From a virus (lineage: Duplodnaviria > Heunggongvirae > Uroviricota > Caudoviricetes), in IMG/VR virus record IMGVR_UViG_2737471844_000002, positions 10,565-74,564 of that record: a stretch of 64,000 bases of DNA; one strand, written 5' to 3'. The position numbers were made by a program, and so were the translations under genes. Positions 20,804 through 44,058 of the stretch are shown here, piece after piece. The first letter of the stretch is position 1, and each line of letters opens with the position of its first letter. The notes under the pieces are model-generated. The model was given only the letters and a program-made list of their open reading frames with translations, did no database searches and had not been told where the DNA came from.

Positions 20804-20817
20804 CCGAAGAGCAAATC

Positions 20818-23248: not shown

Positions 23249-24597
23249 TGGGCTGGGCTGAAAACCTGCAAAACGCCTCCTTTCGTGGCGTGCAGTTTGA
23301 TGTGCTGAACACGGATGAACAAATCAGCCGCGACCATGCGGTCTATGAATACCCGTTTGTTGACGGGGCGGATTTGCACGACCTCGGACGCAAGGCGCGA
23401 CCGTTCCGCATGACGGCGTTCCTGTGGGGAGAGTATTACGAATATAAACTTGAAAAGCTGATCGCCGCCCTGGACGAAGGCGGTGCTGGTGAGCTGATTC
23501 ACCCGGTTTATGGCTCCGTACCATCGGTGATTGTGACCGGCTACAGTATTCGCCATGACGCAGAAAGCCCGGACAGCTGCACCATCGACATGAGTTTTCT
23601 GGAGAACCGCACCGGCAGCGCGTTGTTCAGCACCCCGTTACCGGAGCTGTTTGCACAGCAGTTATTTGAAGAACTGGATAAGTTACTGGCACAGTTAAGC
23701 GAATTATTTGACGCTGTTACGGCCCCATTAAAGACCATTAACAGCGTGATTAAAAAAATCCAGACGGTACGCGCCACGCTGGTGAATACCCTGCTGACGT
23801 TCAAAAGCGATTTTCTCTCATCCATCGACAATATGATGTCGCTGGCCAGCGAACCAGGAAAGTTCATCGGCGGGCTGGCAGAGGTGCTGGAAATCCACAC
23901 GTCAGATGTCGGGCACGCGGTGCCGGTGCTGGAGCGTACTGATTCCGCCACCACGACCGGACTGACCGGGGAAGACAGCGTCGCCAGTTCTGCGACAGTG
24001 ATGACCTGCTGGAATGAGGTGATGGCAGATATGGATGAGCTGGTCGCGCTGCCGGTCGCACTGGTCAGCGGTGATAAAACGCCGTCTGTGGCACTTCCGC
24101 CGGATGCGTCCGTGGAAGACGTGCAGGACGTGAAAGCGGCTTATGCGGTTTTGGCAGCCTCAGAGCTGGCCAGCGTGGCGACGGCGATACTGTCAGATGA
24201 GGCCCAGTCAGAGCCGCTTATACCGGCGGATATCGGGCGACTGGTCGGGGATGTGCGCACCCGCTTACAAGCAGCCATCACGCTGTTCCGTGAACGCTAT
24301 GAAGGCGAACGCGAACGGATAACCGAAACCGCATCACCGCTGGGGCTGATGTACCCGGAAATCATTCAGAGCATGAAGAACGTGGCGGCATCCGTGCAGG
24401 ATGTCGGCCTGCTGGTTCTGTCTCGCCGCCCACCACTGACGCAGAAACAGGTGCAGGCGGACAGTTGCCTGCTGTTGCTGGCGTGGCAGTGGTACGGTGA
24501 TTACAGCCGTGCGGCAGAGCTGCAACGTCTGAACCCGCAGCTGCGTGACCCGAACAACATAACTGCCGGGATGGTGATTAATGCCTATGCAAAATAA
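23248..24597 (+). CDS. DNA circularization protein (Mu N-like)
   Basis: 449-aa ORF; resembles Mu gpN. Confidence 0.7.
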   Translation: MGWAENLQNASFRGVQFDVLNTDEQISRDHAVYEYPFVDGADLHDLGRKARPFRMTAFLWGEYYEYKLEKLIAALDEGGAGELIHPVYGSVPSVIVTGYSIRHDAESPDSCTIDMSFLENRTGSALFSTPLPELFAQQLFEELDKLLAQLSELFDAVTAPLKTINSVIKKIQTVRATLVNTLLTFKSDFLSSIDNMMSLASEPGKFIGGLAEVLEIHTSDVGHAVPVLERTDSATTTGLTGEDSVASSATVMTCWNEVMADMDELVALPVALVSGDKTPSVALPPDASVEDVQDVKAAYAVLAASELASVATAILSDEAQSEPLIPADIGRLVGDVRTRLQAAITLFRERYEGERERITETASPLGLMYPEIIQSMKNVAASVQDVGLLVLSRRPPLTQKQVQADSCLLLLAWQWYGDYSRAAELQRLNPQLRDPNNITAGMVINAYAK

Positions 24598-25792
24598 CGA
24601 TGACAAAATCAGCCTGGTCATTGCCGGAAGGTCGCATTCTGACTGGAGCAGTTATCGTATTGACAGCGATTTCCTGAAAGCCGCCGACGGCTGGCAGCTT
24701 CAGCTGGGACTGCCTGAAAAGGTGTTCCCGGCGGATATCGTCCGGGGTGCGCCGGTCCGTTTGCAGGTGGGAGACGAGACGGTCCTCAGTGGTCGCGTGG
24801 ACAGCGTGCGCCGCAGTGTATCCCGTCAGAGCTGCACGCTGACCCTGTCCGGGCGTGATGATGCCGCCATCCTGGTGGACTGTGCCGCACCGGTGTTCAG
24901 CGCCAATCAGCTGACGCTGGACGAGGTCATCGACAGGATTGTCAGACCGCTGGGGATACAGCGCATCCGTATTCAGGCGTCCGGTGTGTCACGTAATGAC
25001 AAGGTCGTTATAGAGCCGGGGATGCGTGCGTGGGATGCACTGGCTAAAGCTGCCGCCGGTCGCGGCTTATGGCCGTGGTTTGAGCCTGACGGTACGCTGG
25101 TTGTGGGTGGCCCTGACTACACCACCACGCCGGTGGATACACTGATTATGAAGCTGGACGGCACCGGGAACAACTTGATGGAGCTGGACGATACCCGGTC
25201 CATTAACGGCTGTTTCTCCGAGCTGACGGTGCTGGCCCAGAGCCACGCCCGCCGCGCAGACAGCAAGAAACAGGTGGCCGTGGTGCCGCTGGATATCTGG
25301 AACGAGGACGGCAGCGTGCGCACATTATCCGGGCAGGACAGCGGTAATACAGGCAGTGGTCAGACAGGCATTCATAACATGAAAGCCGTGGCCACCGACC
25401 CCACCGTGGATTATTACCGCCCGCAGATAATCACCCAGGGCGACACCAGTAACATGGAGCAGGTGAACTGGCGCGCAAAAAAAATGATGAGTGATGCCCG
25501 CCTGTCGGGGCTGGATATCGTCGCACTGGTTGCAGGCCATCGCACGGCGGATGGTGTCCTGTGGCAGCCCGGCCAGCGTGTGCGGATTGTCAGCGAACCC
25601 CACGGCATCGATGCCATTTTTTTTCTGATGGGCCGCGAGTTCAGCGGAGGCCGGAGCGGGCAGACAACCCGGCTCCGCTTTAAGGAGGATGGCGTGTGGA
25701 TACCTGATGCCTTCCCGCGCGAGAAGAAACGCCATCACCGCAGGGGCAAAAAGAAAAAAGAGGTCGCCATTGTTAAGGTCTGGGAGAAATGA
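24581..25792 (+). CDS. tail protein (Mu P-like)
   Basis: 403-aa ORF overlapping the N stop. Confidence 0.7.
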   Translation: MPMQNNDDKISLVIAGRSHSDWSSYRIDSDFLKAADGWQLQLGLPEKVFPADIVRGAPVRLQVGDETVLSGRVDSVRRSVSRQSCTLTLSGRDDAAILVDCAAPVFSANQLTLDEVIDRIVRPLGIQRIRIQASGVSRNDKVVIEPGMRAWDALAKAAAGRGLWPWFEPDGTLVVGGPDYTTTPVDTLIMKLDGTGNNLMELDDTRSINGCFSELTVLAQSHARRADSKKQVAVVPLDIWNEDGSVRTLSGQDSGNTGSGQTGIHNMKAVATDPTVDYYRPQIITQGDTSNMEQVNWRAKKMMSDARLSGLDIVALVAGHRTADGVLWQPGQRVRIVSEPHGIDAIFFLMGREFSGGRSGQTTRLRFKEDGVWIPDAFPREKKRHHRRGKKKKEVAIVKVWEK

Positions 25793-26442
25793 TGTGGGAC
25801 AAGGTTAATCAGCGCATACAGCAGGCACTGGCCGCCGTTCGCCAGGCATTCAGGGTGGTGACCGGTACGGTGGACAGTTCGACCAAAGTACAGCTACTTC
25901 AGCTGAACGGGCTGGCAGGCGAACAGCTGGACGGTGCGGAGTATTTTCAGCATTACGGCCTCACCACATCCCCGCCGCCCGGCTCGATGGGTATTGCCGT
26001 TCCGCTGAATGGTAATACCTCCCATACCGTCGTCGTGGCCACAGAGCACGGCGCATATCGCCTGACGGAACTGAAACCCGGCGAGGTGGCGCTGTATACC
26101 GACGAAGGCGCGAAAATCGTACTGAAGCGCGGGCGGGTTATTGAGCATGAATGTGATGTTTATCGCGTGAAATGCAAACGCTATGAGGTTGAGGCAGAGG
26201 AGAACGCCGCATTCACGACACCGTTACTGACAGTCAGCGATAAGCTGACTGTGGAAGGTAAAATCACCGGCAACGGTGGCATGGCCATCCGTGGAGGCAA
26301 GAAATACGCTGCCACCTTTGAAGGCAATATCAACCATGTGGGCGGTGTGATTACCTCCGTTGACGTCACCATTAATGGCGTTAAAATCGGAACACACAAA
26401 CACGATACCCCTCACGGCATATCCGGCCTGCCGCATAATTAA
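25789..26442 (+). CDS. baseplate hub/spike protein (Mu gp45-like, gpV family)
   Basis: 217-aa ORF with ATGA coupling to upstream gene. Confidence 0.6.
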   Translation: MMWDKVNQRIQQALAAVRQAFRVVTGTVDSSTKVQLLQLNGLAGEQLDGAEYFQHYGLTTSPPPGSMGIAVPLNGNTSHTVVVATEHGAYRLTELKPGEVALYTDEGAKIVLKRGRVIEHECDVYRVKCKRYEVEAEENAAFTTPLLTVSDKLTVEGKITGNGGMAIRGGKKYAATFEGNINHVGGVITSVDVTINGVKIGTHKHDTPHGISGLPHN

Positions 26443-26466
26443 GTGCTGAACACCCTCACCTGATTC
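26443..26466 (+). promoter_or_regulatory. conserved late-operon element, copy 3 (upstream of baseplate genes)
   Basis: gtgctgaacaccctcacctgattc starting immediately after the gp45-like stop. Confidence 0.4.
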
Positions 26467-26495
26467 TGACCTGTCCATGCTGCCAGACTGGCGGC

Positions 26496-26846
26496 ATGGA
26501 CCAGACGATTTCACCTGCAACCGGCGACTACGAACGCCGCCGGATTTACACACTCCATAACGCGGTTTATCTGCGACTGGCGACACCGCTTGGCAGTTAC
26601 TGGGCGGATGCGTCGCTGGGGTCACGCCTGCACGAGCTGAAGCGGGAAAAAGACGTTCCCCGTGTTCACAGACTGGCGGCGCAGTATGCCAGCCAGGCAC
26701 TTCAGCCACTGCTCGATGACGGGCGGGCAAAATCCATTACCGTTGACACGAAAGCGGGCCAGCGCGGCTGGCTGTTGCTGTTAATCACCGTCACGGATAA
26801 CGCGGGCACACCGCAGACGTTTGAACACCCTGTGAGGATTATGTAA
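26496..26846 (+). CDS. baseplate protein (Mu gp46-like, gpW/gp25 family)
   Basis: 116-aa ORF. Confidence 0.55.
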   Translation: MDQTISPATGDYERRRIYTLHNAVYLRLATPLGSYWADASLGSRLHELKREKDVPRVHRLAAQYASQALQPLLDDGRAKSITVDTKAGQRGWLLLLITVTDNAGTPQTFEHPVRIM

Positions 26847-27925
26847 TGCCGTTTCCTGTTCCGGGCGTTGCTGAAAACACAGAACGCCAGCTACGTGATA
26901 TCGCTAACGCCCTGCCGGGAGAAACCATAGACACCGGCGCTGACAGCGATTACCGCATTCGTGCAAATGCTGTATCCGGCGTGGCGGAGGGGCTTTTTAT
27001 GCATCAGGGATGGATCCTCCGTCAGGTGTTTCCTGACACGGCAGACCCTGAATATCTGGAGCTGCACTGTCGCACGCGCAATGTTTTTCGTAAAAAAGCA
27101 ACGGCCTCATCCGGTCCGGTGGTGATTACCGGCACACCCGGTAAGACGCTGCCAGCCGGTGCGGAAATTCGTGGTGAAGGTGTCAGCGTGGCCACCACAG
27201 CAGACTGCACCATCGGTGATGAAGGCAGCGCAGAGGTGACGGTAAAAAGCACCGCTACGGGGGCACAGACGAACGCATCCGCGACGCAGACGGCAACGCT
27301 GGTCAGTCCGCCGGAAGGCATCAACAGCACGGTGACGATTAAATCCCTGACCGGCGGAACGGACAGGGAAAGCGACGCTGACCTGCTGGCGCGTTATCTG
27401 GATATTCTGCGCAGGCCGCCCGCTGGCGGTAATAAATATGATTACAAACGCTGGGCGCTGGAGGTGGATGGCGTTACGTCTGCATATGTGGAGCCATTGC
27501 GCAGAGGGAAAGGTACTGTTGATGTGGCCATTACGTCAGCCAATGACATCCCCTCGCAGGAACTGATTAATGCCGTGCTGGCACATATTGAGGAAGTCCG
27601 CCCGGTGACAGCGAAGGACACGATGGTACTGGCTCCGACGAAAAAAGCCGTTGATTTCGTTGTCCGGGTAAAAACCAGCGGCCTGACCGTTGAGCAGATA
27701 AAACCGCAGATAACTGGCGTTATCACGGATTTCATGAACCGACTGGCGCCGGGGCAGGAATTAATTATTTCACAACTGGAAACCCAGATTTCACTCATTT
27801 CCGGTGTGAGTGACAGAAAAATAATCACGCCTGACGGGAATGTAAAAGCCGTGATTAATGCGTCAACGTGGGAATGGTTGCGTCCGGGGGATATTGATAT
27901 TCAGCCATTTCCCCGGGAGGGTTAA
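26846..27925 (+). CDS. baseplate protein (Mu gp47-like, gpJ family)
   Basis: 359-aa ORF. Confidence 0.7.
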   Translation: MPFPVPGVAENTERQLRDIANALPGETIDTGADSDYRIRANAVSGVAEGLFMHQGWILRQVFPDTADPEYLELHCRTRNVFRKKATASSGPVVITGTPGKTLPAGAEIRGEGVSVATTADCTIGDEGSAEVTVKSTATGAQTNASATQTATLVSPPEGINSTVTIKSLTGGTDRESDADLLARYLDILRRPPAGGNKYDYKRWALEVDGVTSAYVEPLRRGKGTVDVAITSANDIPSQELINAVLAHIEEVRPVTAKDTMVLAPTKKAVDFVVRVKTSGLTVEQIKPQITGVITDFMNRLAPGQELIISQLETQISLISGVSDRKIITPDGNVKAVINASTWEWLRPGDIDIQPFPREG

Positions 27926-27928
27926 TTC

Positions 27929-28501
27929 GTGAATACAGTCGATTTATTCCGCGCCATGCTGCCGCCGGTCAGTTATGACCTGAACGGGAAATATATTTCC
28001 GCGGAGCTGACAGCCGAGGCTAACGTCATGGAGGCCGTGAAGGCCTCAGCGGCGCGCGTTCTGGCACAAATCACCCCGTTGCAGGCATCGATGACGCTGT
28101 CCGACTGGGAGCGCGTGTACGGTGTTGTCCCCCGTGAAGGGGCAACCCAACAGGAGCGGCGGCAGAACATCCTGGTAAAAATGGCGGCAACGGGCGGGCT
28201 GTCCATTCCCTATTTTAAAAATCTGGCCGCAAGCCTGGGATACACCATAACGATAACCGAACCACGAGCCTTTCGCACCGGGGTAAATCGTTGCGGTGAC
28301 CGTCTGTTTATCCCTGAAATGCGCTGGGTATGGCAGGTCAATGTTATTGGTGCAAAAACGCCGGTATACCGTTTCAGAACGGGCGCATCTGCAACAGGTG
28401 AGCCGCTGACGGCCTTTGGTGAATCCATTTTAGAAAATACCTTTAAAGACCTTAAACCGGCTTTTACAGACTGTTATTTCACGTATGAGGATAAGCAGTA
28501 A
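27929..28501 (+). CDS. tail protein (Mu gp48-like, gpI family)
   Basis: 190-aa ORF, GTG start. Confidence 0.55.
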
Positions 28502-29430
28502 TGCAGAATTTAATTCCTCCGGTGAATACGCCGGATCAATTGTTTCACGATGGTGACCCCACTCAGGGCATTGAGGGCACTATTGTTTATGCTGAACACA
28601 TGAATAATCAGCAGGGAGCCATTCGTGACCTGCAACAGGAAATTATTAATGTGCTCCGTGCGGCTGATATATCACCGGACCCGAAGAAACAAAATCAACT
28701 GCTTGATGCTATATCGCAATATGTCGGGAAAAAAGTTCCTGACGCATCATTAACGAAGAAGGGCATCGTTCAGCTCAGTAGCGCAACAGACAGTGATTCA
28801 GAAACGGAAGCAGCCACACCAAAGGCAGTAAAATCACTGGCGGAAAAAATAACAGAATTGCAGGGAGTGGCTTTACCGGTAGGTACCCCAATACCGTGGC
28901 CGTCTGATTCAGTGCCACCCGGCTATGCCTTAATGCAGGGGCAGAGCTTTGATAAAGGCTCTTACCCTAAACTTGCAGCTGCCTACCCATCCGGGATTAT
29001 CCCGGATATGCGGGGCTGGACAATTAAGGGTAAGCCTGCCAGTGGTCGTGCTGTATTGTCTCAGGAGCAGGACGGCATTAAATCACACGCCCACAGTGCC
29101 AGTGCATCCAGTACGGATTTGGGGACGAAAACCACATCGTCGTTTGACTACGGAACTAAATCAACAAATAACACAGGTGGTCATAATCACGGTGTTGGTG
29201 AAAATGTTTCTGTCAGTGCCGGCAGTGGCAAAACAGTAAATATGAGTACCGGCACCGTAAATCTTTACACCAAATCTGCTGGCGCTCATGCGCACACTGT
29301 CGGCATTGGTGCTCATGTGCACACTGTTGCTATTGGTTCACACGGACACACCGTCACTGTTAACGCTACTGGTAACGCAGAAAACACCGTCAAAAACATC
29401 GCATTTAACTATATTGTGAGGCTTGCATAA
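28501..29430 (+). CDS. tail fibre protein
   Basis: 309-aa ORF; C-terminal half is near-identical to the C-terminus of the P2-like H protein at 51456-53588, including His-x-His repeats and the [18 protein letters not shown] end. Confidence 0.7.
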
Positions 29431-30005
29431 TGACTTTTAAAATGAGCGATAAAGCACGGACCATGCGTGTATTTAATTTTCTTGAAGATACAAAAGAATT
29501 TATCGGCAGTGGTGACGCTTATATACCGCCTCATACCGGATTACCCGCAAACTGTACGGATATTGTACCGCCGGAAATTCCCGAAGGTTTTACGGCAATG
29601 TTTGATACTGCTGACAATTCATGGCGTCTGGTAGAAGACCATCGGGGGGAAACAGTTTATTCAACGGAAACCGGAAATGCAGTCCCGATATCTGAACTGG
29701 GGGAACTTCCTGAAAATGTCACATTTATTGCACCAGACGGAGAATACCAGCGCTGGGATGGCAGTCAGTGGGTGACGGATGAAGAGGCGAAGCGTGATGC
29801 GCTGATTAATCAGGCGGCAGAAAAGAAAACCAGCCTGCTGAAACAGACTGGAGAACAAATCGCAATCTTACAGGATGCTGTTGATTTTGGTGAAGCAACA
29901 CCAGAGGAACAGGAGCAACTGACAGCCCTCAGAAAATTACGAATAAAGTTAAATCGTATTCAACCGGAAAATGCACCAGATATCGACTGGTCAGACTTTG
30001 AATAA
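29430..30005 (+). CDS. tail fibre assembly protein
   Basis: 191-aa ORF; homologous to the P2-like G product at 53588-54187 (shared [14 protein letters not shown] motif). Confidence 0.7.
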   Translation: MTFKMSDKARTMRVFNFLEDTKEFIGSGDAYIPPHTGLPANCTDIVPPEIPEGFTAMFDTADNSWRLVEDHRGETVYSTETGNAVPISELGELPENVTFIAPDGEYQRWDGSQWVTDEEAKRDALINQAAEKKTSLLKQTGEQIAILQDAVDFGEATPEEQEQLTALRKLRIKLNRIQPENAPDIDWSDFE

Positions 30006-30050
30006 ATTCCACAGCCGCCAGCAGGCGGCTTTTTATCATTCAGAGGCTCT

Positions 30051-31475
30051 ATGTCTGTATTAATTTCAGGGGCGCTGATTAATGGCGCTGGCGTTCCGAT
30101 GGCGGAATGCAAAATTTATTTAGATGCACTGGTTAATACCAGTGAAGTGGTCACTGAGTCATTTGCGGTTATTGAAACCGATGCGGCGGGACAGTATGCC
30201 TTTGAAGCACAAAAAGGCAAATACACCGTACACATCAAGCAAAAGAACGGCCCCAAGTGCTGCGTGGGTGACATTTCGGTTTACGACGACTCAAAGCCCG
30301 GCACGCTGAACGACTTTCTGACTGCCCTTGATGAAAGCGATTTAAAGCCGGATGTAGTGAAACGCTTTGAGGAACTGGCGCAACAGGCACAGCAGAGCGC
30401 GGAAGCCGCCGCTGGCAGCGAACAACAGGCAGGACAACACGCCACTGATGCACAGCAGATTAAGGCCGACTGTCAGGCGCTGGCGAAAGACGTACAGCAG
30501 AACGCCGACGCGGTTGCGGAGGGTAAACAACAGGTCGAAAATCTGGTCTCACAGGTTGAGAATGCCGCCGAGGAGGTAAAAAAGGACGCTGAAGCTGCTA
30601 AACAGGCCGCATCTGATGCAGAGCATGTCAGGGAGGATATTGACACCGCGTTATCTGCGACACTGAAAACGGCGAATCGTTTATCAGAGCTGGCTGATGA
30701 AGGTGAAGAGGCTCAGCAGGAATCCCGTGATAATCTTGGACTGAAAAGCGCTGCCACAATGACGCCACAGAGCGACATTCGTGACCGGACTGAAGGTCGT
30801 CTGGCGACACCTGGCGCATTTGGTTTTGGGCATATTTTTTTGCCCGCAGAGCGGATCCGTTTTAACACAGAGGATGATTTTCTGTCCTGGGTAAGGAATG
30901 CGACGCCGGGTGAATATTTTGTTGAGGGTGGCAGTAAAATCATATCCGGAGGTGTGTTGTTTAACGGGGTGGTCAGCATCCGGTGGGTTGAGGCACGCAA
31001 TAATCCACCGGAACCGCGATATACATCAAAGGCCATTATTTTCTACGGTATCAATGGCGATGTTTATTACAGCCGCTACTGGACAACAGGTAATGGTTAT
31101 CTGACTGGCTGGGAAAATCTGAAAATTACCTCACAGGACATTATCTCTCTTCTGTCCGGTATTGCTCCCGGTACCACGGACGGCTGGTACGGTGCAGGCA
31201 GTCTTGTACTGGCGGCTTATAACGGTAAGGGAGACGCAGACACCGACCGCCGGATAAAACGCGGTTACAGCTATCCGGGGTCACGCCTGAGCGCGGTTGA
31301 ATTTATGTGTCACGGCACGACCGGTAGCGGGGTTGGATATAACGGCAGCGTTTCCGTATATGTGCGGAGTTCTGGTGGTGGTATGCCGGGGTCATATCGG
31401 GCACTGTCAGGTGATGGGCTCGGGTCTGCCGGGTCAGCCAGTGTCATGATTGGTTTGTTCATACGTATTGCGTAG
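30051..31475 (+). CDS. side tail fibre protein (Phage_fiber_N / Stf-like)
   Basis: 474-aa ORF; N-terminus resembles lambdoid side-tail-fibre N domains, followed by an Ala/Gln-rich coiled segment. Confidence 0.65.
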   Translation: MSVLISGALINGAGVPMAECKIYLDALVNTSEVVTESFAVIETDAAGQYAFEAQKGKYTVHIKQKNGPKCCVGDISVYDDSKPGTLNDFLTALDESDLKPDVVKRFEELAQQAQQSAEAAAGSEQQAGQHATDAQQIKADCQALAKDVQQNADAVAEGKQQVENLVSQVENAAEEVKKDAEAAKQAASDAEHVREDIDTALSATLKTANRLSELADEGEEAQQESRDNLGLKSAATMTPQSDIRDRTEGRLATPGAFGFGHIFLPAERIRFNTEDDFLSWVRNATPGEYFVEGGSKIISGGVLFNGVVSIRWVEARNNPPEPRYTSKAIIFYGINGDVYYSRYWTTGNGYLTGWENLKITSQDIISLLSGIAPGTTDGWYGAGSLVLAAYNGKGDADTDRRIKRGYSYPGSRLSAVEFMCHGTTGSGVGYNGSVSVYVRSSGGGMPGSYRALSGDGLGSAGSASVMIGLFIRIA

Positions 31476-31482
31476 GTGTTTT

Positions 31483-32049
31483 ATGGAAATAAAACGCATC
31501 GAAAATGCGCGTTATCTTGAAAATGGCGCGATTGACTGCGGGGTGTTGTTTGATGGCATGGATGAACCGGTTCCGTATACGGCAACTGCCACGGATACAG
31601 CAGAGACAGGGCAGCGAGTCTGGCAGGAGCTGCAAAGTGGGAGATGGGGAGAAATAACGCCGTTCACCGTCACGCCAGAGATGCTGGAAGCAGCAAAAGC
31701 AGCCAAACGCCGGGAAATTGAAGCATGGCGCACAGAACAGGAGGCGCAGCCATTCATTTTTGAATGGAACGGCCATAGCTGGAACGGGGGACCGGATTCT
31801 ATGGCCCGTCTTTACCCGGTGGTGATGTCAGCAAAATCAGTCACGGCACGGAAATCTATGGTATGGGGTGATGCGGAAAATCAGCAGGTAAAGTTGTCAA
31901 TGCAACAACTGGATGAACTGCTTACTGCAATGGTTCAGGCGCAGGTCGATCGCAATGACGAGATTTATCGCCGTCAGCGGGAGATGAAGGAAACACTGGC
32001 GGGGCTGGATGACCTGAACACCATCAGAAGTCTGCCCATCAGTGAATAA
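31483..32049 (+). CDS. tail fibre assembly protein (Tfa-like)
   Basis: ATG 31483 within track ORF 31450-32049; Tfa-like sequence character. Confidence 0.6.
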   Translation: MEIKRIENARYLENGAIDCGVLFDGMDEPVPYTATATDTAETGQRVWQELQSGRWGEITPFTVTPEMLEAAKAAKRREIEAWRTEQEAQPFIFEWNGHSWNGGPDSMARLYPVVMSAKSVTARKSMVWGDAENQQVKLSMQQLDELLTAMVQAQVDRNDEIYRRQREMKETLAGLDDLNTIRSLPISE

Positions 32050-32062
32050 AAACGTAAGTGGT

Positions 32063-32142
32063 CAAATAAAGTGCTGTATCACCTTATTTTGCGCTTTATT
32101 CTGGATTTTTTTTATTATGTCAACCGTTCAAAATAAAGCGCT
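32063..32142. repeat. three AAATAAAGYGC motifs in alternating orientation at the Mu-like / P2-like junction
   Basis: caaataaagtgc (32063), gcgctttatt on the complementary strand (about 32091), caaaataaagcgc (32128); AT-rich 130-bp intergenic region. Confidence 0.3.
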
Positions 32143-32183
32143 AAATAGTCCAGAAAAAATCGCGAAGTTACACACGCGGCGCG

Positions 32184-34727
32184 GTGGATGAAGCCATGGC
32201 CTCGCTGCGCCTGCTGCCGTCCTATCTGCGCGATCCGCTTATTCGCCACCTCTCCTTCCTTCGCAAAAAACAGGAAGCCGATCGCCGGAAAGGCAAAAAG
32301 AGCTGGCAGGCGGAACGCTATGCACGCGGAACCCTGCGCAAAATATTCGAACGTCTGGATCGCACTGACGGACGCTGGCTGACACCGGGTTATCGCTCCC
32401 TTGCCGGACGCGAACGCCTGGACGATTTGCTTTACCTGCCGCAGCTCAACAAACACCAGATACAGACGTTGGCCACCATGACGGCGGCGATGTTCAGCAG
32501 CACCTTCGAAAAGCTCTGCGATGGCTTTGGCGCCAGAGATGGCGAGCTGACCATGGATGTAATGTTGAAGGCTTACCGGATGCTGGCTCGTATCGCATTA
32601 CGCCTGCACATCATGCCGCCACATTACGAAGCCCTGAACAAGAGCGAACCGGATACGGAACTGCTGCCGGGCGCAATCCTTCGCCTGACCTGTGCGGACT
32701 GGTGGAAACGCAAACTGTGGCTGTTACGTTGCGAGTGGAGAGAAGAACAACTCCGCGCCGCCTGTCTGGTTTCCAGAAAAACATCGCCTTATCTGAGCCA
32801 GGACGCGTTAAGCGAGTTTCGCGCACAGCGCGAGAAAACACGCGATTTCCTGAAAAGTTTCATGCTGGAAAACGAAGACGGGTTCACGATTGATCTCGAG
32901 ACAGTGTATTACGCGGGAGTAAGTAACCCGGTTCACCGTAAGGCAGAAATGATGGCCACCATGAAGGGGCTGGAACTTCTGGCCGAAGCCCGTGGTGACA
33001 AAGCGGTGTTTCTGACTGTCACCTGCCCGTCAAAATACCACGCAACAACGGAGAACGGTCATCCGAATCCCAAATGGAACGGGGCCACCATGCGCGACTC
33101 CAGCGATTACCTGGTTAACACGTTTTTTGCGGCGGTCCGCAAGAAACTGAACCGCGACGGCCTGCGCTGGTATGGCATCCGCACGGTGGAGCCTCACCAT
33201 GACGGCACCGTGCACTGGCATATGATGGTCTTTGCCCATCCGGAAGAAATCGACACCATTGTGTCCCACACCCGCGATATTGCCATTCAGGAAGATCGTC
33301 ACGAGCTGGGCGATGATATTACTCCGCGCTTTAAGGCGGAGTATGTCGACGGCTCAAAAGGCACGCCAACCAGCTACATCGCCACCTACATCGGAAAAAA
33401 CCTGGACAGCCGCGCCGTGGATGGCATCGCCCCGAAAACAGGCAAACCACGCGTTGACCACGAAACCGGAAAATCAATGGCCGAGAGCGTGGAGCGCGCC
33501 ATCGGCTGGGCGCGCCTTCACCGGGTCCGCCAGTTCCAGTTCTTTGGCATCCCCTCCCGTCAGGTGTGGCGTGAACTGCGCCGCCTTGCCAGCCAGATGG
33601 CACGCAACCCGGAAGGCCCGCAACGGCTGAAGGACGACGCAATGGATGCGGTACTCGCTGCCGCTGATGCCGGGTGTTTTGCCTCCTACATTGAAAAACA
33701 GGGTGGCGTACTTGTTCCACGCAAGGACTACCTGATTCGCACCGCCTACGACCTCGCAGATGAGCTGAACGATTACGGCGAACAGAGCGTACAGATTTAC
33801 GGGATCTGGTCACCACTCATCGGGGAATCCTCCCGTGTGTGCACGCACCCGGATAACTGGAAGCTGGTAAGACGTAAACCGGAAGCGGAAGACAGCGCCC
33901 GCGAAAATTGTTTTGACCTTCAGGGCGGCCCTGCCGCCCCTTGGACTCGTGGCAATAACTGTCCCCGTGTACAGGAAACGGACAACAACGGGACAGAACA
34001 GCCGGAAGAACGGCCAGCACCGTGGCCGCAGCTTCCTGACGGCGTTGATGTGGATGAATGGATGCGCTCACTGAAACGGCACGAACGCCGGGCGCTGATG
34101 CGTTCGCTGCGTGACAAACAGGCCAAAAACAGCAGTGATGAAATGCAGAACTGGACACAGAGCCGCAAACAGCCACAGCCTTTGCCTGATAAACACGAAT
34201 TACTCGCTAAAGAATGGCGGGAGTCTGCCGAATCTCTCGGCCTGCATATCGGTGAACAGCAGATGCAGCACCTGTTACGGGGCGGCAGCCTGTACGTTGA
34301 CGGCAGCATCATTGCACCGCAGGGATTTGAAATTGTACGCAAACCGGATACCCGCCCGGACAGCCGAATCACGCAGCTCTGGCAGCGCCTGAGCCGTAAT
34401 CACGGCGTAAGCAGCACGGAGATCCGCCATAACCCGGTCGCCAGCTATCTGGCACAGCTCGGGGCATCAGACCCCGAAGCCGCCGCACGCCTGGCATCCA
34501 CACTTCAGCAGGACCAGAACACCATGAAAACACCCGTTACCGTGCTTTCTGACATGCTGCGCGCCATTCGTGACGCAGAGCACGCACAGAGAATCAGTGA
34601 AACCACTGAACACGCCCGCCGCAAAGCAGACCTGCTGCGGGGTAGCCTGACCAGTGGCAACAAAAAACAGACAGAAACGGGATTCACAAATCCCGCAAAT
34701 GAGCAAAAAACGCGCCGCGATATATGA
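32184..34727 (+). CDS. A: P2-type replication initiation endonuclease gpA
   Basis: 847-aa ORF (GTG 32184 or ATG 32196); contains the rolling-circle initiator signatures VEPHHDGTVHWHMM and YIATYIGKNLD (paired Tyr). Confidence 0.8.
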   Translation: MDEAMASLRLLPSYLRDPLIRHLSFLRKKQEADRRKGKKSWQAERYARGTLRKIFERLDRTDGRWLTPGYRSLAGRERLDDLLYLPQLNKHQIQTLATMTAAMFSSTFEKLCDGFGARDGELTMDVMLKAYRMLARIALRLHIMPPHYEALNKSEPDTELLPGAILRLTCADWWKRKLWLLRCEWREEQLRAACLVSRKTSPYLSQDALSEFRAQREKTRDFLKSFMLENEDGFTIDLETVYYAGVSNPVHRKAEMMATMKGLELLAEARGDKAVFLTVTCPSKYHATTENGHPNPKWNGATMRDSSDYLVNTFFAAVRKKLNRDGLRWYGIRTVEPHHDGTVHWHMMVFAHPEEIDTIVSHTRDIAIQEDRHELGDDITPRFKAEYVDGSKGTPTSYIATYIGKNLDSRAVDGIAPKTGKPRVDHETGKSMAESVERAIGWARLHRVRQFQFFGIPSRQVWRELRRLASQMARNPEGPQRLKDDAMDAVLAAADAGCFASYIEKQGGVLVPRKDYLIRTAYDLADELNDYGEQSVQIYGIWSPLIGESSRVCTHPDNWKLVRRKPEAEDSARENCFDLQGGPAAPWTRGNNCPRVQETDNNGTEQPEERPAPWPQLPDGVDVDEWMRSLKRHERRALMRSLRDKQAKNSSDEMQNWTQSRKQPQPLPDKHELLAKEWRESAESLGLHIGEQQMQHLLRGGSLYVDGSIIAPQGFEIVRKPDTRPDSRITQLWQRLSRNHGVSSTEIRHNPVASYLAQLGASDPEAAARLASTLQQDQNTMKTPVTVLSDMLRAIRDAEHAQRISETTEHARRKADLLRGSLTSGNKKQTETGFTNPANEQKTRRDI

Positions 34728-34768
34728 AGCGCGCACAAAACAGGCGAAAGCGGGATTTAAAAATCCCG
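34677..34768. promoter_or_regulatory. two CGGGATT-N4-AATCCCG palindromes (candidate ParR centromere/operator)
   Basis: cgggattcacaaatcccg at 34677-34694 and cgggatttaaaaatcccg at 34751-34768, just upstream of parM. Confidence 0.35.
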
Positions 34769-34803
34769 TAAACGGTTAATTAACCAACATAAGGAAAATC
34801 GAC

Positions 34804-35763
34804 ATGAAAATTTGTATCGACGACGGCTCCACCAACATCAAGCTGGCATGGACTGAAAACGGCGAACGCCGCAACGCCATCAGCCCGAACAGCTTCAAGT
34901 CGGAATGGTCTGCGCCGTTCGGTGGCTCGCAGCCTGCGAACTACATGCTTGATGGCGTGCGCTATGGTTTTGATCCGGTCAGCGATCGCTTTGTCCAGAC
35001 GACCGACACGCAATACCAGTACAGCGATGTGAATGTCATTGCCATTCATCACGCGCTGGTCAAATCAGGCATCACGCCACAGGAAGTGGATGTTGTTGTC
35101 ACCCTGCCACTGAGCGAATATTTCGACACTAACGCCCAGCCGGACATGGCCAACATCAACCGCAAAAAAGCGAACGTTATGCGCCCGGTGGAGTACCAGA
35201 ACGGTGAGGCATTCACTATCCGTAACGTGCGGGTTATGCCTGAATCCATTCCGGCTGGCTTTAAGGCACTGGCTGACATGAGTCCGTTTGAATCCCTGCT
35301 GATTGTGGATTTGGGCGGAACCACGCTGGATGTGGCAAAGGTTCAGGGGCAACTGGCAGGTATCAGCCAGGTGTTTTGCGATCCACACGTAGGCGTTTCT
35401 CTGATGGCCGATGCCGTACTGTCGGTGATGGCCACTAACGGTATGCGCACCAGTCACCACATAGCCAATACCATTATCGAACATCGCCATGATGAAGCCT
35501 GGCTGCGCCAGCACATCCACAATGACGCGCATTACGCCAGCCTGATGGCGGTTATTCGTGAAAAGGAAGAAACACTGAAACAACGTGTTATCCGCGCGCT
35601 GGCGGTTTTTTCGGGTTACGGGCGGGTGATGGTTGTCGGTGGAGGGGCGGAGATTGTGGCACCCGCTATCCGCGAAGCCTGCGGAGTTAATGCGACTTTC
35701 ATCGCGGACGGGGTGCCACAGTTTGCTCTGGTTAATGGGCTGTACGCAATGGACAAGGAGTAA
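34804..35763 (+). CDS. parM: ParM/StbA actin-like segregation ATPase
   Basis: 319-aa ORF; strong resemblance to plasmid R1 ParM (MKICIDDGSTNIKL, YSDVNVIAIHHAL, LLIVDLGGTTLD). Confidence 0.8.
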   Translation: MKICIDDGSTNIKLAWTENGERRNAISPNSFKSEWSAPFGGSQPANYMLDGVRYGFDPVSDRFVQTTDTQYQYSDVNVIAIHHALVKSGITPQEVDVVVTLPLSEYFDTNAQPDMANINRKKANVMRPVEYQNGEAFTIRNVRVMPESIPAGFKALADMSPFESLLIVDLGGTTLDVAKVQGQLAGISQVFCDPHVGVSLMADAVLSVMATNGMRTSHHIANTIIEHRHDEAWLRQHIHNDAHYASLMAVIREKEETLKQRVIRALAVFSGYGRVMVVGGGAEIVAPAIREACGVNATFIADGVPQFALVNGLYAMDKE

Positions 35764-35767
35764 ACCA

Positions 35768-36079
35768 ATGACGACTCCAACCAGACGGATAAGTTTCTAT
35801 CTGAAGCCCACCGCCGTCAAGAACGAAGGAGAAGCATGCGCCTGGCTGGACAGCCTTACACCAGAAGCCCGCAAAAGCGGCCAACGCGTGGCTTTTCTGG
35901 CCGGGCTGGCACTTCTGAAAATGAATCCGGCAGAGGCTTACCGACTGGCTGCATGGGCTGATGATGAGGTGTTATCAGTGACACAAACCAAGACAGAACG
36001 CCCCGCGTCACAGCCAGTATCAACCGCACAGATAACCAGTCAGATGGCCGGAAATATCCGGGCGTTATTTCCTGAATAA
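35768..36079 (+). CDS. parR: ParR/StbB-like partition adaptor
   Basis: ATG 35768 five nt after the parM stop; 103-aa product with N-terminal RISFYLKP...LDSLTPEARKSGQ pattern resembling R1 ParR. Confidence 0.5.
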   Translation: MTTPTRRISFYLKPTAVKNEGEACAWLDSLTPEARKSGQRVAFLAGLALLKMNPAEAYRLAAWADDEVLSVTQTKTERPASQPVSTAQITSQMAGNIRALFPE

Positions 36080-36122
36080 CATCAGGGCGTATTCGCCCTG
36101 CCACCAATCCCATAACATAAAG

Positions 36123-36152
36123 AACGGGGTGCAAATCACTATGCACCCCGTT
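36123..36152. promoter_or_regulatory. 11-bp perfect inverted repeat
   Basis: aacggggtgca, 8-nt loop, tgcaccccgtt; in the AT-rich gap between parR and the ATPase gene; no T-run follows on the plus strand. Confidence 0.3.
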
Positions 36153-36457
36153 CCAATACAAACCATCAGAAGATCTACACATCTTTCTCAAATGGCCAAG
36201 TAATCGAGCTGGTTCAGGAATAAGCAGGCTGCCAACACAAGTGAAGGAGATAAAACTGTAGAACTGATCAATCGTTGGAAACAAGTATTGACAGTATGTT
36301 CGAGTAACCCAACTGGATAGATTTTATGCTGATTATCCATACAGTAAAAAAGTGAGGATACTCTTTGAATTACGCCAGCAAGAGTGGTAACATTAGTCAA
36401 TGATTTTCATTAATGTAGTTACCAGCTTACACAAGCTGATGTTTTATTGGGGGTTTT

Positions 36458-37540
36458 ATGGTAAACGTGAGGGAGGATGAACTTTTCAAACTCATCGAGC
36501 AAGGCATCAAAGGCAACGCAAATGCATTTACACTCCTATGCAGAAAGATGATTAACAACATCCGTAAAAATGATGAGGCTTTAGCTTCTAAGCTGGCTTC
36601 GTTAGTTGCTGAGGGAACAGTATTACGTGGGGCATCTAGTAAGGCTCCTATGCCTGTGGATGGAGACTCCAGACGAAACCTTTTGCAGGAAACATCTGTC
36701 AACGCAATTGTTGAAGAACCTGTATGGAATACGGATATCTCAAAGAAGCTGGAGTCAATTGTTAACGAAAGAGAGAATGCGGTTTCTTTGTTCAAAGCTG
36801 GTCTTGAACCTGTGAAGACGGTTTTACTTTCTGGCCCGCCAGGCGTAGGCAAAACAATGTCCGCACATTGGCTTGCTGCAAAGTTAAATTTACCTCTTTT
36901 AACATTGGATCTCTCATCTGTAATGAGTTCTCTTTTGGGAAAAACAGGTAATAATATTAAATCCGTTATGGATTATGCCAAAGAGAAACCATGTGTCCTT
37001 TTGCTTGATGAATTTGATGCTGTTGCAAAAAGACGTGATGATGACAGGGACGTTGGAGAATTAAAACGTTTAGTTACTGTACTCCTACAGACCATAGATG
37101 AGTGGCCAGCGACCTCGCTTCTTGTTGCTGCGACTAATCACCCTGATATCTTAGATCCGGCTGTTTGGCGTCGATTTGAGCACATCCTTAAATTTAATAT
37201 GCCATCAGTAGAACTGATAGATAGATATTTAGTCAATCATAATATTGAACCTGAACTATCTAAAAAACTTGCACCATTATTAGATGGCATGTCCTTTGCC
37301 ATCATTAACCGTATTTTGAATTTCTCCAAAAAGAATGAGGTACTTAGAAATATTCCATTTGAAAGCTCATTAATAGAAGCCGTAATTACGGAGAGGGTTT
37401 CATTGGATGAGTTTAGCGATAATGATCTCAATATAATTAAATATCATTTTGACGGTTTTTCAAATAGGAAGATAGCTGAATTAGTTGGTGTTTCACATCC
37501 AACAATCGCGAATAAATTACAAAAGTGGGGGATTAAATGA
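36458..37540 (+). CDS. AAA+ ATPase with C-terminal HTH domain
   Basis: 360-aa ORF; Walker A GPPGVGKT, Walker B LLLDEFD, sensor/Arg-finger region ATNHPDILDPAVWRRFE; C-terminal GFSNRKIAELVGVSHPTIANKLQKWG helix-turn-helix; AT-rich. Confidence 0.8.
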   Translation: MVNVREDELFKLIEQGIKGNANAFTLLCRKMINNIRKNDEALASKLASLVAEGTVLRGASSKAPMPVDGDSRRNLLQETSVNAIVEEPVWNTDISKKLESIVNERENAVSLFKAGLEPVKTVLLSGPPGVGKTMSAHWLAAKLNLPLLTLDLSSVMSSLLGKTGNNIKSVMDYAKEKPCVLLLDEFDAVAKRRDDDRDVGELKRLVTVLLQTIDEWPATSLLVAATNHPDILDPAVWRRFEHILKFNMPSVELIDRYLVNHNIEPELSKKLAPLLDGMSFAIINRILNFSKKNEVLRNIPFESSLIEAVITERVSLDEFSDNDLNIIKYHFDGFSNRKIAELVGVSHPTIANKLQKWGIK

Positions 37541-39741
37541 TGGAAAGGAACTTACTTTTAGGTAACGGTCATGTTCTGACAAAAAAGGAACCTTTGCCTA
37601 AAGGAAGGGATGGTAAGCGCTATCCCTATACTCTTGAAGAAGTAAGGGAGCATTTAAACCCAGAGATTGATACTTTACTCTCACGCTTTCGCAGTTTGGA
37701 TGATGCGGCTAAGCCAAGGGGGGAGAGTGTATTCAATTTAACTTTACACCCAGCGTTTTTGGGTAAAAGCTACTTTCCGGAAGGATTGCTTAGAGCGACA
37801 GGTTTACGGGATGTCGGTAGCCGTCAGGTAATCATTCGCCCACGGAAAGCGGCACGTCAGTGCGATCAGAATAAGGACTTAGTAACGGCGCAACTGTTTG
37901 TTAGCGGTGATGATGATGCCGTTATAAGATTTAAGGAAATTTTAAATTCCCCTACAGCTCCGAAGGGCGTACAAAAGGATTTGATCGAAATTGAAAGTGT
38001 TAGCTTTTTTGAAGGAAAAGAGAGAGCACGCAATTTTGAGCATGCGAAAAGTGATTTGATAAAATTTGAAGTGGTTCTTCATGCTGGGGTTGAAGACGAT
38101 GATATCGTTAAAGCCTATATTAGCTATGCGGCACAATATGATGTCTCTGTTGATTACAAAAGTAGAATCCAAGTTGGTGGGCTGACTTTCATCGTTGCAC
38201 ACGCGCGACCTGAAGATATGAAAAAAACACTCGATTTTTCATTAATCCGCGTTGTGCGGCCGATGCCGTCTCTCAGGTGTACTCAGCCGAACATTGTCAG
38301 AAAGTTATCTAATATAGTTACACCGGAGCTCCCTAATTCTAAAGCTGTTCTTGAATCCGAACGTATTGCCATTTTTGATGGTGGCTTGGGGACAGCTGAC
38401 TTGAGTAATTGGGTTACGGAATACGTGTATCCAGACACCAAAGAAACAAGCGGATTATTATTGCAGCACGGTAATGAAGTGACATCCACTTTCTTATTCG
38501 GACGTGTCGAGGAAAATGCACCTTCTTTTAAAAGACCGTTTATGAATGTAGATCATTATAGAGTTCTTTCACCGACATCAGGTGACAATGGCAATTGGGA
38601 TTTATTTGATGTCCTTAAGAAAATACAGTCCGTTCTTGATAGTGGTGACTATAAGTTCGCTAATCTAAGTATTGGTCCTCATCTTCCAATTGGTGATGAT
38701 GAGGTTCATGTATGGACTGCTGTTTTAGACCAAATCTGTGCTAAGCATGGGATATTACTTACTGTTGCTGTTGGGAATGATGGCAATGAGGACGGTGATG
38801 CAGCGAGAATACAACCTCCTTCCGATATGGTAAACGCGCTAGCGATTGGTGCTGCTGATCGTAGCGGTGAAAAATGGGGGCGGGCACCATATAGCTGTAT
38901 TGGGCCAGGCAGAAGCCCCGGATTCGTTAAACCTGATGGTGTTATTTTTGGTGGAAGCGACGACGAGCCTTTTTACACTTACAACCCTCTGCTTGGTTCT
39001 ATAGTTGGAGTTCAAGGAACCAGTTATGCCTCTCCATTAGCATTGAGAACGGCCGCTGGAGTTGCGGCTCTATCAGGAACTCCATTGAACACCATTGCAT
39101 TGAAAGCGTTGCTTGTTCATCATGCTGAAACATCAAGAAAATATTCGCGTGAACATATCGGTTGGGGACGGTTTAGTGAGGATCCTAACGTTTTAATCGA
39201 TTGTCCAAATGATACTGCTACAGTAATTTACTATGGTTCATTAGCAAAAAATAAATATTTAAGGGCACCGATCCCATTCCCTGATGTTCCCTTTGACGAA
39301 GCATTTGAGCTTACCGCTACTTTATGCATTCAAACCCCAGTAGATCCTGAACATTCAGTAAACTATACAAGGGCCGGTATGCAGGTAACTTTCCGCCCAA
39401 GATTCGGCCTTGACGATACCGATACAGATGATTTCTTTGGTCAAAAAAGCCAGTATAAGACTGAAAGGGAGTGTAGGAGTGAAGGTCATAAATGGGAAAC
39501 TTGTTTGCACAGAAGCAAAAAGTTCAGTGCTGATACATTATTAAGCGATCCAGTTTTTGATATACGGTATCATGCCCGAGATTCTTCGCGCCATGTTAAG
39601 GGAGTTTCAGCCCCTGATATGCAATATGCGATGGTAATAAGCGTAAGGGTAAAAGACTTTGATTTATATAATGTTATTCGCCAGCGATATACAATTCTGA
39701 ATCCTATTCAACTGCGCACACAAATTTCTCTCGACACGTAA
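37537..39741 (+). CDS. S8 subtilisin-like serine protease with N- and C-terminal extensions
   Basis: 734-aa ORF with ATGA overlap to the ATPase gene; catalytic triad motifs IAIFDGGLG (Asp codon 38377-38379), LQHGNEV (His codon 38467-38469), GTSYASP (Ser codon 39022-39024) in canonical D-H-S order and spacing. Confidence 0.8.
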   Translation: MMERNLLLGNGHVLTKKEPLPKGRDGKRYPYTLEEVREHLNPEIDTLLSRFRSLDDAAKPRGESVFNLTLHPAFLGKSYFPEGLLRATGLRDVGSRQVIIRPRKAARQCDQNKDLVTAQLFVSGDDDAVIRFKEILNSPTAPKGVQKDLIEIESVSFFEGKERARNFEHAKSDLIKFEVVLHAGVEDDDIVKAYISYAAQYDVSVDYKSRIQVGGLTFIVAHARPEDMKKTLDFSLIRVVRPMPSLRCTQPNIVRKLSNIVTPELPNSKAVLESERIAIFDGGLGTADLSNWVTEYVYPDTKETSGLLLQHGNEVTSTFLFGRVEENAPSFKRPFMNVDHYRVLSPTSGDNGNWDLFDVLKKIQSVLDSGDYKFANLSIGPHLPIGDDEVHVWTAVLDQICAKHGILLTVAVGNDGNEDGDAARIQPPSDMVNALAIGAADRSGEKWGRAPYSCIGPGRSPGFVKPDGVIFGGSDDEPFYTYNPLLGSIVGVQGTSYASPLALRTAAGVAALSGTPLNTIALKALLVHHAETSRKYSREHIGWGRFSEDPNVLIDCPNDTATVIYYGSLAKNKYLRAPIPFPDVPFDEAFELTATLCIQTPVDPEHSVNYTRAGMQVTFRPRFGLDDTDTDDFFGQKSQYKTERECRSEGHKWETCLHRSKKFSADTLLSDPVFDIRYHARDSSRHVKGVSAPDMQYAMVISVRVKDFDLYNVIRQRYTILNPIQLRTQISLDT

Positions 39742-39748
39742 TTTTTAT

Positions 39749-39771
39749 GGCCGCGAAAGCGGCCTTTTTTC
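39749..39771 (+). terminator. rho-independent terminator
   Basis: ggccgc gaaa gcggcc hairpin followed by tttttt, 8 nt after the protease stop. Confidence 0.6.
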
Positions 39772-40077
39772 TGTAATTTTTTTATGAATTTACATGCACG
39801 ATAGTGCACAAATTTGCACAATTTTTTTGAACGAATTTTTGCCCTTCTGGCCCGCGTGGCGGCTGGATCCGTCAGGGATCCGTGCGTGCACAAAAAAACG
39901 CGCTTTTTCTGCGCGCAGGTGACGGGGGAACAGCCCGCGTTTCAGGGGGTAAATAGCATTCCCTGAACGATGTCGCAGCGACACAACAGAATGGCTGTAT
40001 TTCTCACGCTGAACGTGAAAAAGGCGTGAGGGATTCTGATTTGATGGGGTGAAAGGTAAGGCCGTCAAAATCGCACT

Positions 40078-40096
40078 GAGGCGGCGAAGAACATGC
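40078..40096. other. candidate P2-type cos site
   Basis: gaggcggcgaagaacatgc resembles the recalled P2 cohesive-end sequence and lies in the expected position upstream of Q. Confidence 0.3.
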
Positions 40097-40193
40097 AGTC
40101 AACGCGGTGGGATTGCGTAAAAGTCTGACCGCCGATGATGGCAATAAGCAGAAAAGCGTCGTGAAATTATCTGATTGATACAGGAGCTGGAGA

Positions 40194-40222
40194 GCCGGGG
40201 CATAAATTTTTTATGCCCCGGC
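40194..40222 (-). terminator. hairpin downstream of Q (possible terminator)
   Basis: gccggggcata aatttttt atgccccggc inverted repeat about 25 nt beyond the Q stop. Confidence 0.35.
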
Positions 40223-40246
40223 GAAGCAGCAGACAAGCGAAGCGCG

Positions 40247-41293
40247 TCAGGATGTGGGCTGGGTATCTAACAGTGCGTAAGGGTTAAAGCGGATCACCTC
40301 TTCGCCAAGCCAGTCATTGATGTGCTTCATGGCCTCCATGACGGGCATCAGCTCGTTAATTGCGTAAACCCGCGCGGCCTTCTCCACATCACCAAACGCA
40401 CTTTTTTCACCCGGCATCGCCCCCATCAGTTGCGGCGGAACGCGGTGCGCAGCCAGCACATCATCACGGGATGCCGCCTTAACATTCATGAACTCATCCT
40501 TTGCGGTGATCTGCTGGAACGGCAAAATTTGCACACCTTCTTTGCCACCGTTGGGCGCATGAATGAGCACGTTTTTAAATGCACCACCACCACGCGCACC
40601 CTGTAACGTTTCTTTCAGGGAGTCCATGCTTTCGCGGTTTACCTGCGCTGCACCGATGTAGATGATGCACCCGGCGTGGGATCCGTTGTCGTAATACAGT
40701 TTTCTGAACATGTCCGCCGAATGAGACAGGCTGGCCGAGAGTAATGCGCCGAGATATTCCGGCATGCCGTAGATTTCCTGGTTAATGTCAGGATTCATCA
40801 GGTGGCACACTTTGCCAGGGCGAAACTGAAACGCATCCTTGCCATCCTGCACATACCACCATGATTCAAGATCGCTTCCGCGTCGCATGTATTTCGCCAG
40901 GGCGTGCCGTAATTTAAGCGGTTCGCCGAGCATATTGCTTCGAAGCTCAAGGAATGCGTTACCGAACACAAACCAGTCCAGCGCCAGCGCCGAGAAATCC
41001 TGCCGGGAAAGCAGCGGGTGCGGAATATAGCAGCCGAGCAATACATTGCGCTTAAAGTAAAGCGCAGACTGATGCCAGGACGTTTGCCGGGCAGCTCTTG
41101 CCAGACCGTACCAGTCCACCGGGGTTTCATACCACCGCCCGTTATCAGCACAGTACATATTGTCCAGCAGGTCATGCCCGGTCAGGCGATAAGGACCATC
41201 AAATGTGAATGCACTGAGCGATGATTCTTTCCTGAGCGCATCAGCGAGATCAATGCGTGAACTCATGCGCACTTTTTTATTTTTTCTGCTCAT
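40247..41293 (-). CDS. Q: P2-type portal protein gpQ
   Basis: 348-aa ORF; start codon overlaps the P stop (ATGA); P2 Q-like sequence and position. Confidence 0.8.
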   Translation of the reverse strand: MSRKNKKVRMSSRIDLADALRKESSLSAFTFDGPYRLTGHDLLDNMYCADNGRWYETPVDWYGLARAARQTSWHQSALYFKRNVLLGCYIPHPLLSRQDFSALALDWFVFGNAFLELRSNMLGEPLKLRHALAKYMRRGSDLESWWYVQDGKDAFQFRPGKVCHLMNPDINQEIYGMPEYLGALLSASLSHSADMFRKLYYDNGSHAGCIIYIGAAQVNRESMDSLKETLQGARGGGAFKNVLIHAPNGGKEGVQILPFQQITAKDEFMNVKAASRDDVLAAHRVPPQLMGAMPGEKSAFGDVEKAARVYAINELMPVMEAMKHINDWLGEEVIRFNPYALLDTQPTS

Positions 41294-44035: not shown

Positions 44036-44058
44036 TAAGACAAAGGAGCAAATTTTTT

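Follow-up and report, generated by a model that had tools for sequence, protein, structure and literature searches.

The question raised by this locus is how the tail-fibre module of a Mu-like phage comes to lie directly against the replication gene A of a P2-like phage. The window, that is, the whole stretch of 64,000 nucleotides that was analysed, had been read in the initial annotation as a transposable Mu-like phage inserted into a resident P2-like prophage just upstream of A, with a hybrid element or a misassembly as the alternatives. The analysis described here leads, with high confidence, to a more precise answer: the two phages are nested prophages, and the Mu-like phage transposed into gene A itself of a resident P88-like prophage.

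The sequence from 32040 to 32200 reads ...agtgaaTAA (stop at 32049), continues with 123 AT-rich bases ending ...gaaaaaatcgcgaagttaca (32172), and then proceeds with cacgcggcgcggtggatgaagcc.... The Mu-like late genes had been annotated to end at 32049, and the final Mu-like ORF, a DUF4376 member of the tail-fibre module, does stop there. A non-coding AT-rich stretch follows this ORF as described, with P2-type gene-A sequence soon after, and within the window none of int, C, cox and B is present between the Mu-like ORF and gene A. When positions 30000-35000 were compared with phage records by megablast, Escherichia phage P88 and its relatives (Xuanwuvirus, P2-like) were recovered at 93-96% identity, and the P88 match was found to start at window 32173, which corresponds to P88 nt 6210. 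This start of homology, together with the point at which related right ends diverge, places the border between the Mu-like and the P88-like sequences at 32172|32173. The border previously drawn at 32049/32050 has therefore been moved, the Mu-like right end spanning 32050-32172, and the gap of 134 bp reported before gene A is reduced to a non-P2 stretch of 123 bp. A promoter and terminator consensus scan of 31800-32500 found none, and an Rfam search gave only a chance miRNA match (E = 0.59). The features surrounding the junction are as follows.

1..32172, + strand: Mu-like transposable prophage of 36,870 bp, of which the rightmost 32.2 kb lie here (identity to a contig, L016, that carries the left end and the transposition genes)
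31483..32049, + strand: last Mu-like gene, DUF4376, tail-fibre module, 188 aa from the ATG (gene call and PF14301 match in contig L014; annotated likewise in strain C5)
32050..32172, + strand: Mu-like right end (attR), non-coding and AT-rich (contiguous with the tail-fibre module in C5 to 32120; conserved ending ...CCAGAAAAAAnCGCGAAGTTACA)
32173..32176, + strand: CACG, the right-hand copy of a 4-bp target-site duplication (overlap of the two flanks at P88 nt 6210-6213)
32173..34727, + strand: remnant of the P2-type replication-endonuclease gene A, truncated at its 5' end and retaining the codons from about 85 to the stop (P88 match from nt 6210; PF05840 Phage_GPA)
32173..64000, + strand: prophage of the P88-like type (Xuanwuvirus, P2-like), which begins here within gene A, covers the late genes and continues past the window end (blastn against P88)

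The AT-rich stretch 32050-32172 is the right end (attR) of a Mu-like transposable prophage, ending ...CGCGAAGTTACA. In Escherichia coli strain C5, the same tail-fibre genes are followed by the same sequence as far as window position 32120, at 98% identity, and this contiguity assigns 32050-32120 to the Mu-like element. A sensitive search with 32050-32180 matched 28 genomes. Many of these matches stop at 32172-32175, inside host genes such as eutC, an aldehyde dehydrogenase gene, hydrogenase 4 and ypdF, and in the annotation they lie between Mu-like tail genes and a truncated host gene. When four right ends were aligned, the ending ...CCAGAAAAAAnCGCGAAGTTACA was invariant and the sequences diverged directly after it, which sets the Mu-like right terminus at 32172; the same ending is conserved in prophages located in eutC, in puuC and beside fadR. 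The termini of the element are of the form 5'-TG...CA-3', with TGTGGGG... on the left and ...GTTACA on the right, and the base outside each end varies among insertions. Strain C5 was unusable as a reference for the terminus, ISEc12 having removed its copies of the two outermost right-end repeats (R2 and R1, described below). This strain (NZ_CP010122; L002 6650-9531) carries a near-identical tail-fibre module and attR, cut by ISEc12 after the equivalent of window 32120, and adjoins a truncated lambdoid holin gene; it represents another Mu-like copy inside a prophage, now grounded. A search of the 64-kb window for an inverted copy of the right end returned the right end itself only, and the left end therefore lies outside the window, whose first base is already within the Mu-like early region.

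On the other side of the border, the replication-endonuclease gene of P88 occupies nt 5957-8779 and encodes 940 aa, and the window homology starts 253 nt inside it. The insertion point falls at P88 nt 6210-6213, around codon 85, so that the first 84-85 codons are missing from the gene A of the window. The GTG at 32184 merely happens to be the earliest start codon in a frame that is open from 32145 and that contains A codons in frame from 32175; indeed, positions 32173-32183 are already gene-A codons, and the intact A genes of VTB97432v, PEC148 and P88 all extend upstream of the position equivalent to 32184. The supposed "gene A" of 847 codons is thus a remnant truncated at its 5' end and not an intact gene cut from its promoter. 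Beyond this remnant, the window from 32173 to 64000 is colinear with P88 nt 6210-35068 at 95-97% identity (blastn), with the cargo exchanged at 36129-39788, 52208-55550 and 62409-63378. The first of these slots, flanked by parM/partition and the portal gene and only about 0.7 kb long in P88, contains, at 36458-39741, an anti-phage defence pair made of IetA (AAA ATPase, E = 4e-89) and IetS (S8 protease, E = 7e-41). The second, absent from P88, is a replaced tail-fibre/invertible-segment region including a 412-aa ORF. The third, also absent from P88, is an insert of about 970 bp with a 221-aa ORF (62594-63259) that has no PADLOC match.

The left junction was reached through the contigs of a short-read set. 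An exact-protein look-up with the 847-aa GTG-start form of the A remnant gave no match, and the 843-aa ATG-start form retrieved one contig, SRR2239581_2. With the DUF3164 protein, which is widespread (935 blocks), only other insertion sites were retrieved; the DUF2786 protein, the rarest of the early Mu-like proteins by cluster size, is present on 12 contigs and led to SRR2239581_135. Both are Logan contigs of SRR2239581. Both match the window at 100% identity, the first (L014) over 15,323 bp and the second (L016, part of a contig of 54.7 kb) over 12,165 bp; L014 crosses the right junction and L016 the left one. The two junctions are therefore on separate short-read contigs, and the window holds the right one only. 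The L016 sequence opens with a short ORF that takes the place of P88 cox and sits just ahead of the DUF4761 gene; int and C would lie further upstream on the contig. Its P88-like part goes on with DUF4761, DUF4754, a derepression protein, a gp15 homologue and an 88-codon A' ORF; the 1,236 bp preceding the Mu-like element match P88 4978-6213 at 99.7%. At the left end the contig reads TGTGGGGTAGTG... and the element starts TGTGGGGTAGTGATCAATTCTGGAC..., TGTGGGG being the first conserved bases in six independent left ends. Then come a CI-like repressor, ner, a 680-aa transposase (PF02316, PF09299) that has the HTH and C-terminal domains of the Mu type, and a 297-aa AAA_22/TniB-like protein that corresponds to a MuB-like ATPase. 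The initial annotation had suggested looking upstream for a Mu-like left end with repressor and transposition genes and, beyond it, for P2-type early genes. Both are present in this contig, the early genes being P88-like. From end to end, the Mu-like element measures 36,870 bp, with its left end 4,697 bp upstream of window base 1. In another copy (L012 around 4376; CP148426.1), the left terminus is AGTGGGGTAGTG instead of TGTGGGG, a change of the terminal base that might disable cleavage.

The two junctions fit each other. In P88 numbering, the left flank extends to nt 6213 and the right flank resumes at nt 6210, so that CACG is found on both sides of the element; a target-site duplication of 5 bp had been expected, and the one found is of 4 bp. 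When the flanks are joined in silico minus one CACG, a 935-aa open A frame is restored, 96% identical from end to end with P88 A. Gene A is consequently in two pieces, a 5' fragment of 88 codons that still follows the P88 early operon and a 3' fragment apparently without a promoter. The combination of two reciprocal junctions, a shared CACG, a restored A frame and colinearity with P88 argues for a simple insertion and excludes both a hybrid and a misjoin. The proposal of a Mu-like phage inserted into a resident P2-like prophage is thereby borne out, both junctions being present in the independent assembly of SRR2239581. The right junction was found in none of the more than 1,500 complete E. 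coli genomes with a P88-like A gene.

The insertion point is where this account departs from the original proposal, which placed an intergenic insertion upstream of an intact A, complete and merely cut off from its early promoter. An ORF with a GTG at 32184 does follow the junction, and P2 early genes are absent from the window, as this proposal would have it. It is nevertheless very improbable: P88 A starts 253 nt before the homology begins, the bases 32173-32183 are in-frame A codons, and the 84-85 codons that it would not expect to be missing sit across the Mu-like element in L016, beyond its left end. The A frame rebuilt from the two flanks refutes this version. A genuine hybrid phage, a single mosaic genome formed by recombination of Mu-like late genes with a P2-like module for replication and late functions, agrees with the mosaic nature of phage genomes and with the adjacency of the two modules on the same strand. 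This explanation has next to no probability left, as the Mu-like part is complete at both of its ends and typical in length (36.9 kb), the breakpoints coincide exactly with transposon termini flanked by a target duplication, colinearity with P88 is kept across the insertion, and the window contains two full head/tail gene sets. An assembly artefact joining prophages of different loci at a shared repeat can likewise be given almost no credence, even if prophage regions are prone to misjoins and contig SRR2239581_2 breaks in the tail-fibre region 2.8 kb upstream of the junction, for the join involves no shared repeat, two reciprocal junctions with a matching 4-bp duplication restore the reading frame, and the independent de Bruijn assembly of SRR2239581 has the identical junction.

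In the favoured reading, a transposition into gene A, the sequence of events is as follows. A P88-like prophage, of the P2 family, was resident first, and the 36,870-bp Mu-like phage then integrated by DDE transposition about 253 nt into gene A, duplicating the 4 bp of target CACG. By analogy with Mu attR, a MuA-type transposase would bind the repeats R1-R3 at the right end, pair them with three similar left-end sites and cleave after the terminal CA.

These repeats include the motifs that had drawn attention to the junction. Three AAATAAAGYGC motifs in alternating orientation had been described there. The +/-/+ pattern is correct and two of the copies are exact; the third, on the - strand at 32092-32102, reads GAATAAAGCGC and has one mismatch. 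The exact copies occupy 32064-32074 and 32131-32141 of the + strand; no other exists in the 64 kb, where 0.12 would be expected by chance, and two copies were reached in none of 100 shuffles. The motifs proved to be the cores of longer repeats, namely R2 (32131-32141), R3 (32092-32102) and a weak fourth copy (32064-32074). The repeats were scored with a position weight matrix (PWM) built from six end sites (L1-L3 and R1-R3) and scanned over 72.5 kb; left-end positions are given below in window coordinates.

32148..32172, - strand: R1, terminal 25-mer TGTAACTTCGCGATTTTTTCTGGAC, including the terminal CA at 32171-32172 (PWM 24.6, leave-one-out 16.1; invariant in 4 family members)
32126..32150, - strand: R2, direct repeat of R1, containing the motif at 32131-32141 (PWM 23.6, leave-one-out 14.8; conserved block in the right-end alignment)
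32082..32106, + strand: R3, inverted relative to R1 and R2, containing the minus-strand motif at 32092-32102 (PWM 27.9, leave-one-out 21.9; conserved in the right-end alignment)
32060..32085, - strand: weak fourth copy, containing the motif at 32064-32074 (below the PWM threshold; only in the window and strain C5)
left terminus: L1, 25-mer TGTGGGGTAGTGATCAATTCTGGAC
-4623 to -4599: L2, left-end 25-mer
-4572 to -4548: L3, left-end 25-mer

In the 72.5 kb, scores above 20 were confined to the two ends of the element. Of the six sites, five reached 23.6-27.9, with leave-one-out scores of 15-22; L2, although a member of the training set, scored 13.7 and gave a poor leave-one-out value. R1, R2 and R3 stand out as conserved blocks in the alignment of otherwise divergent right ends, and a repeat finder paired R3 with R1 and with R2 as inverted repeats I1 and I2. 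The comparison of the junction repeats with the left end, another of the checks initially suggested, showed that R1 and L1 are of equal length and have a common 25-nt TGT...TTCTGGAC frame; the match of L2 is weak. The fourth copy at 32060..32085 is not conserved in E2348/69, TUM9812 or M8 and is probably no functional site. The suggestion that the motifs could be transposase-binding end repeats is the best reading of these data, related 25-mers being present at both ends, and the six end repeats are presumably bound by the phage transposase, as judged from their sequence.

The length of the target duplication was further investigated by comparing the paired ends of other insertions of the same lineage (L016, L018, L020, L021, L022, L023, L028/L029 and L030/L031). 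An exact 4-bp flanking repeat was found in all eight independent insertions, each with TGTGGGG...GTTACA termini:

Window/SRR2239581 (P88 gene A): CACG
E2348/69 (eutC): CACT
TUM9812 (puuC): CACG
TUM1881 (scpC): TATC
GCA_002227105: ATCT
M8 (ycgB): AATG
S13 (TonB-dependent receptor gene): CATT
Ec55 (ypdF): CGCT

In six of these eight, the next outward base on the left differs from the terminal A of the element, and a duplication of 5 bp is therefore excluded there. A 5-bp duplication in the window itself, either CACGC or, counting the terminal A, ACACG, was considered and rejected on the basis of the paired ends of the other insertions. The duplication is of 5 bp in Mu and of 6 bp in B3 (PMC8705779); a literature search found no report of a 4-bp duplication by Mu-like phages, and the SfMu paper makes no mention of target duplications.

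A single base beside the insertion deserves a comment. Directly 5' of the left CACG, at L016 3844 (P88 nt 6209), an A is present where three intact A genes have a G. This G-to-A change replaces Ala by Thr and lies 5 bp before the Mu-like left end; among 1,003 complete genomes with an intact region, the best match to the reconstructed 122-bp site is 121/122. This private change may be either a chance polymorphism or a repair scar of the junction. A general conversion to A beside the duplication was also considered and rejected, the A being native to eutC in E2348/69. It is conceivable, at slightly less than even confidence, that the MuA-type transposase of this lineage cuts its target with a 4-nt stagger, which would make it the first transposable phage of the MuA type known to leave a 4-bp duplication, the G-to-A change being perhaps the scar of the repair. 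The Mu-like lineage with the 4-bp duplication is widespread in E. coli and is also found in the EPEC strain E2348/69. Its consistent 4-bp duplication is the sole point of wider interest here, as it concerns how Mu-family DDE transposases set the target stagger.

The Mu-like element as a whole has the properties of a transposable phage. Its lineage is found at unrelated sites, with at least 14 different flanks seen, including eutC, puuC, scpC, ycgB, ypdF, ydiQ, the vicinity of mdoH, a TonB-dependent receptor gene, lambdoid prophages and P88 gene A. No integrase is present at its ends; the element instead combines a transposase with TG/CA termini and a target duplication, and Mu-type head/tail Pfam families (Portal_Mu, Mu-like_gpT, Gp36 and Gp37) are present in related copies. 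With both ends, all six predicted sites and intact transposition genes, the phage looks complete and may still be able to move. Its middle region carries an N6/N4 DNA methyltransferase at window 8662-9402, absent from TUM1881 and L012. A copy of the same lineage located directly after the antiterminator Q gene of a lambdoid prophage (L008 4011-5179) provides a third case of a prophage within a prophage.

In P2, A is the essential, cis-acting initiator of replication, and since A is split here the P88-like prophage would very probably be replication-defective. The insertion has thus most likely grounded this prophage, and its IetAS defence pair stays with the cell. For the annotation, the whole 64-kb window becomes phage DNA from two elements, the 847-codon "gene A" a pseudogene fragment, and the 123-bp AT-rich stretch a Mu-like attR. 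More generally, the event shows that transposable phages routinely nest in other prophages and inactivate them.

The inner element is like Mu in its mode of action and in most of the features that define Mu. The right end of Mu has two direct sites at its tip and an inverted third site, and the Mu end layout was reportedly described by Craigie, Mizuuchi and Mizuuchi in 1984. As in Mu, the present element has terminal 5'-TG...CA-3', three predicted transposase-type repeats per end with the innermost right site inverted, the left-end order of repressor, ner, transposase (PF02316 and PF09299) and AAA ATPase, a genome of about 37 kb, and insertions at unrelated sites that disrupt genes. It differs from Mu in its repeat consensus, TTTnGCGCTnnATTCTGGAC, which is unlike the Mu site consensus, and in the right end of the window copy, which is without gin or mom. 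The closest isolated Mu-like phages reach 67-75% DNA identity at best, over small parts of the early region. A spacer separates L1 and L2 as it does in Mu, where it measures 74 bp (PMC3820752). The target duplication, of 4 bp in eight out of eight insertions, is unlike that of both Mu (5 bp) and B3 (6 bp).

The resident prophage closely resembles P88 (NC_026014; Xuanwuvirus, Peduoviridae), with which it is colinear at 95-97% DNA identity from inside gene A through the late genes. Its early genes upstream of the insertion are 85-99.7% identical, and the portal, terminase, capsid and gene A are of the P2 type; it differs from P88 by the 36.9 kb that interrupt gene A and by the cargo of the three variable slots. 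Cases of prophages within prophages in STEC and EPEC have been described as integrase-mediated, site-specific integration into prophage-borne copies of attB (Nakamura et al. 2021, PMC8112680). The present structure is like these cases in being a prophage inside a prophage in the E. coli chromosome, with a "host" prophage that is very probably defective in the present case, and unlike them in its origin, a near-random DDE transposition into coding sequence with no attB or integrase. In this sense, the nesting of these P88-like and Mu-like phages is a further case of a familiar kind of event, such as ordinary phage biology produces.
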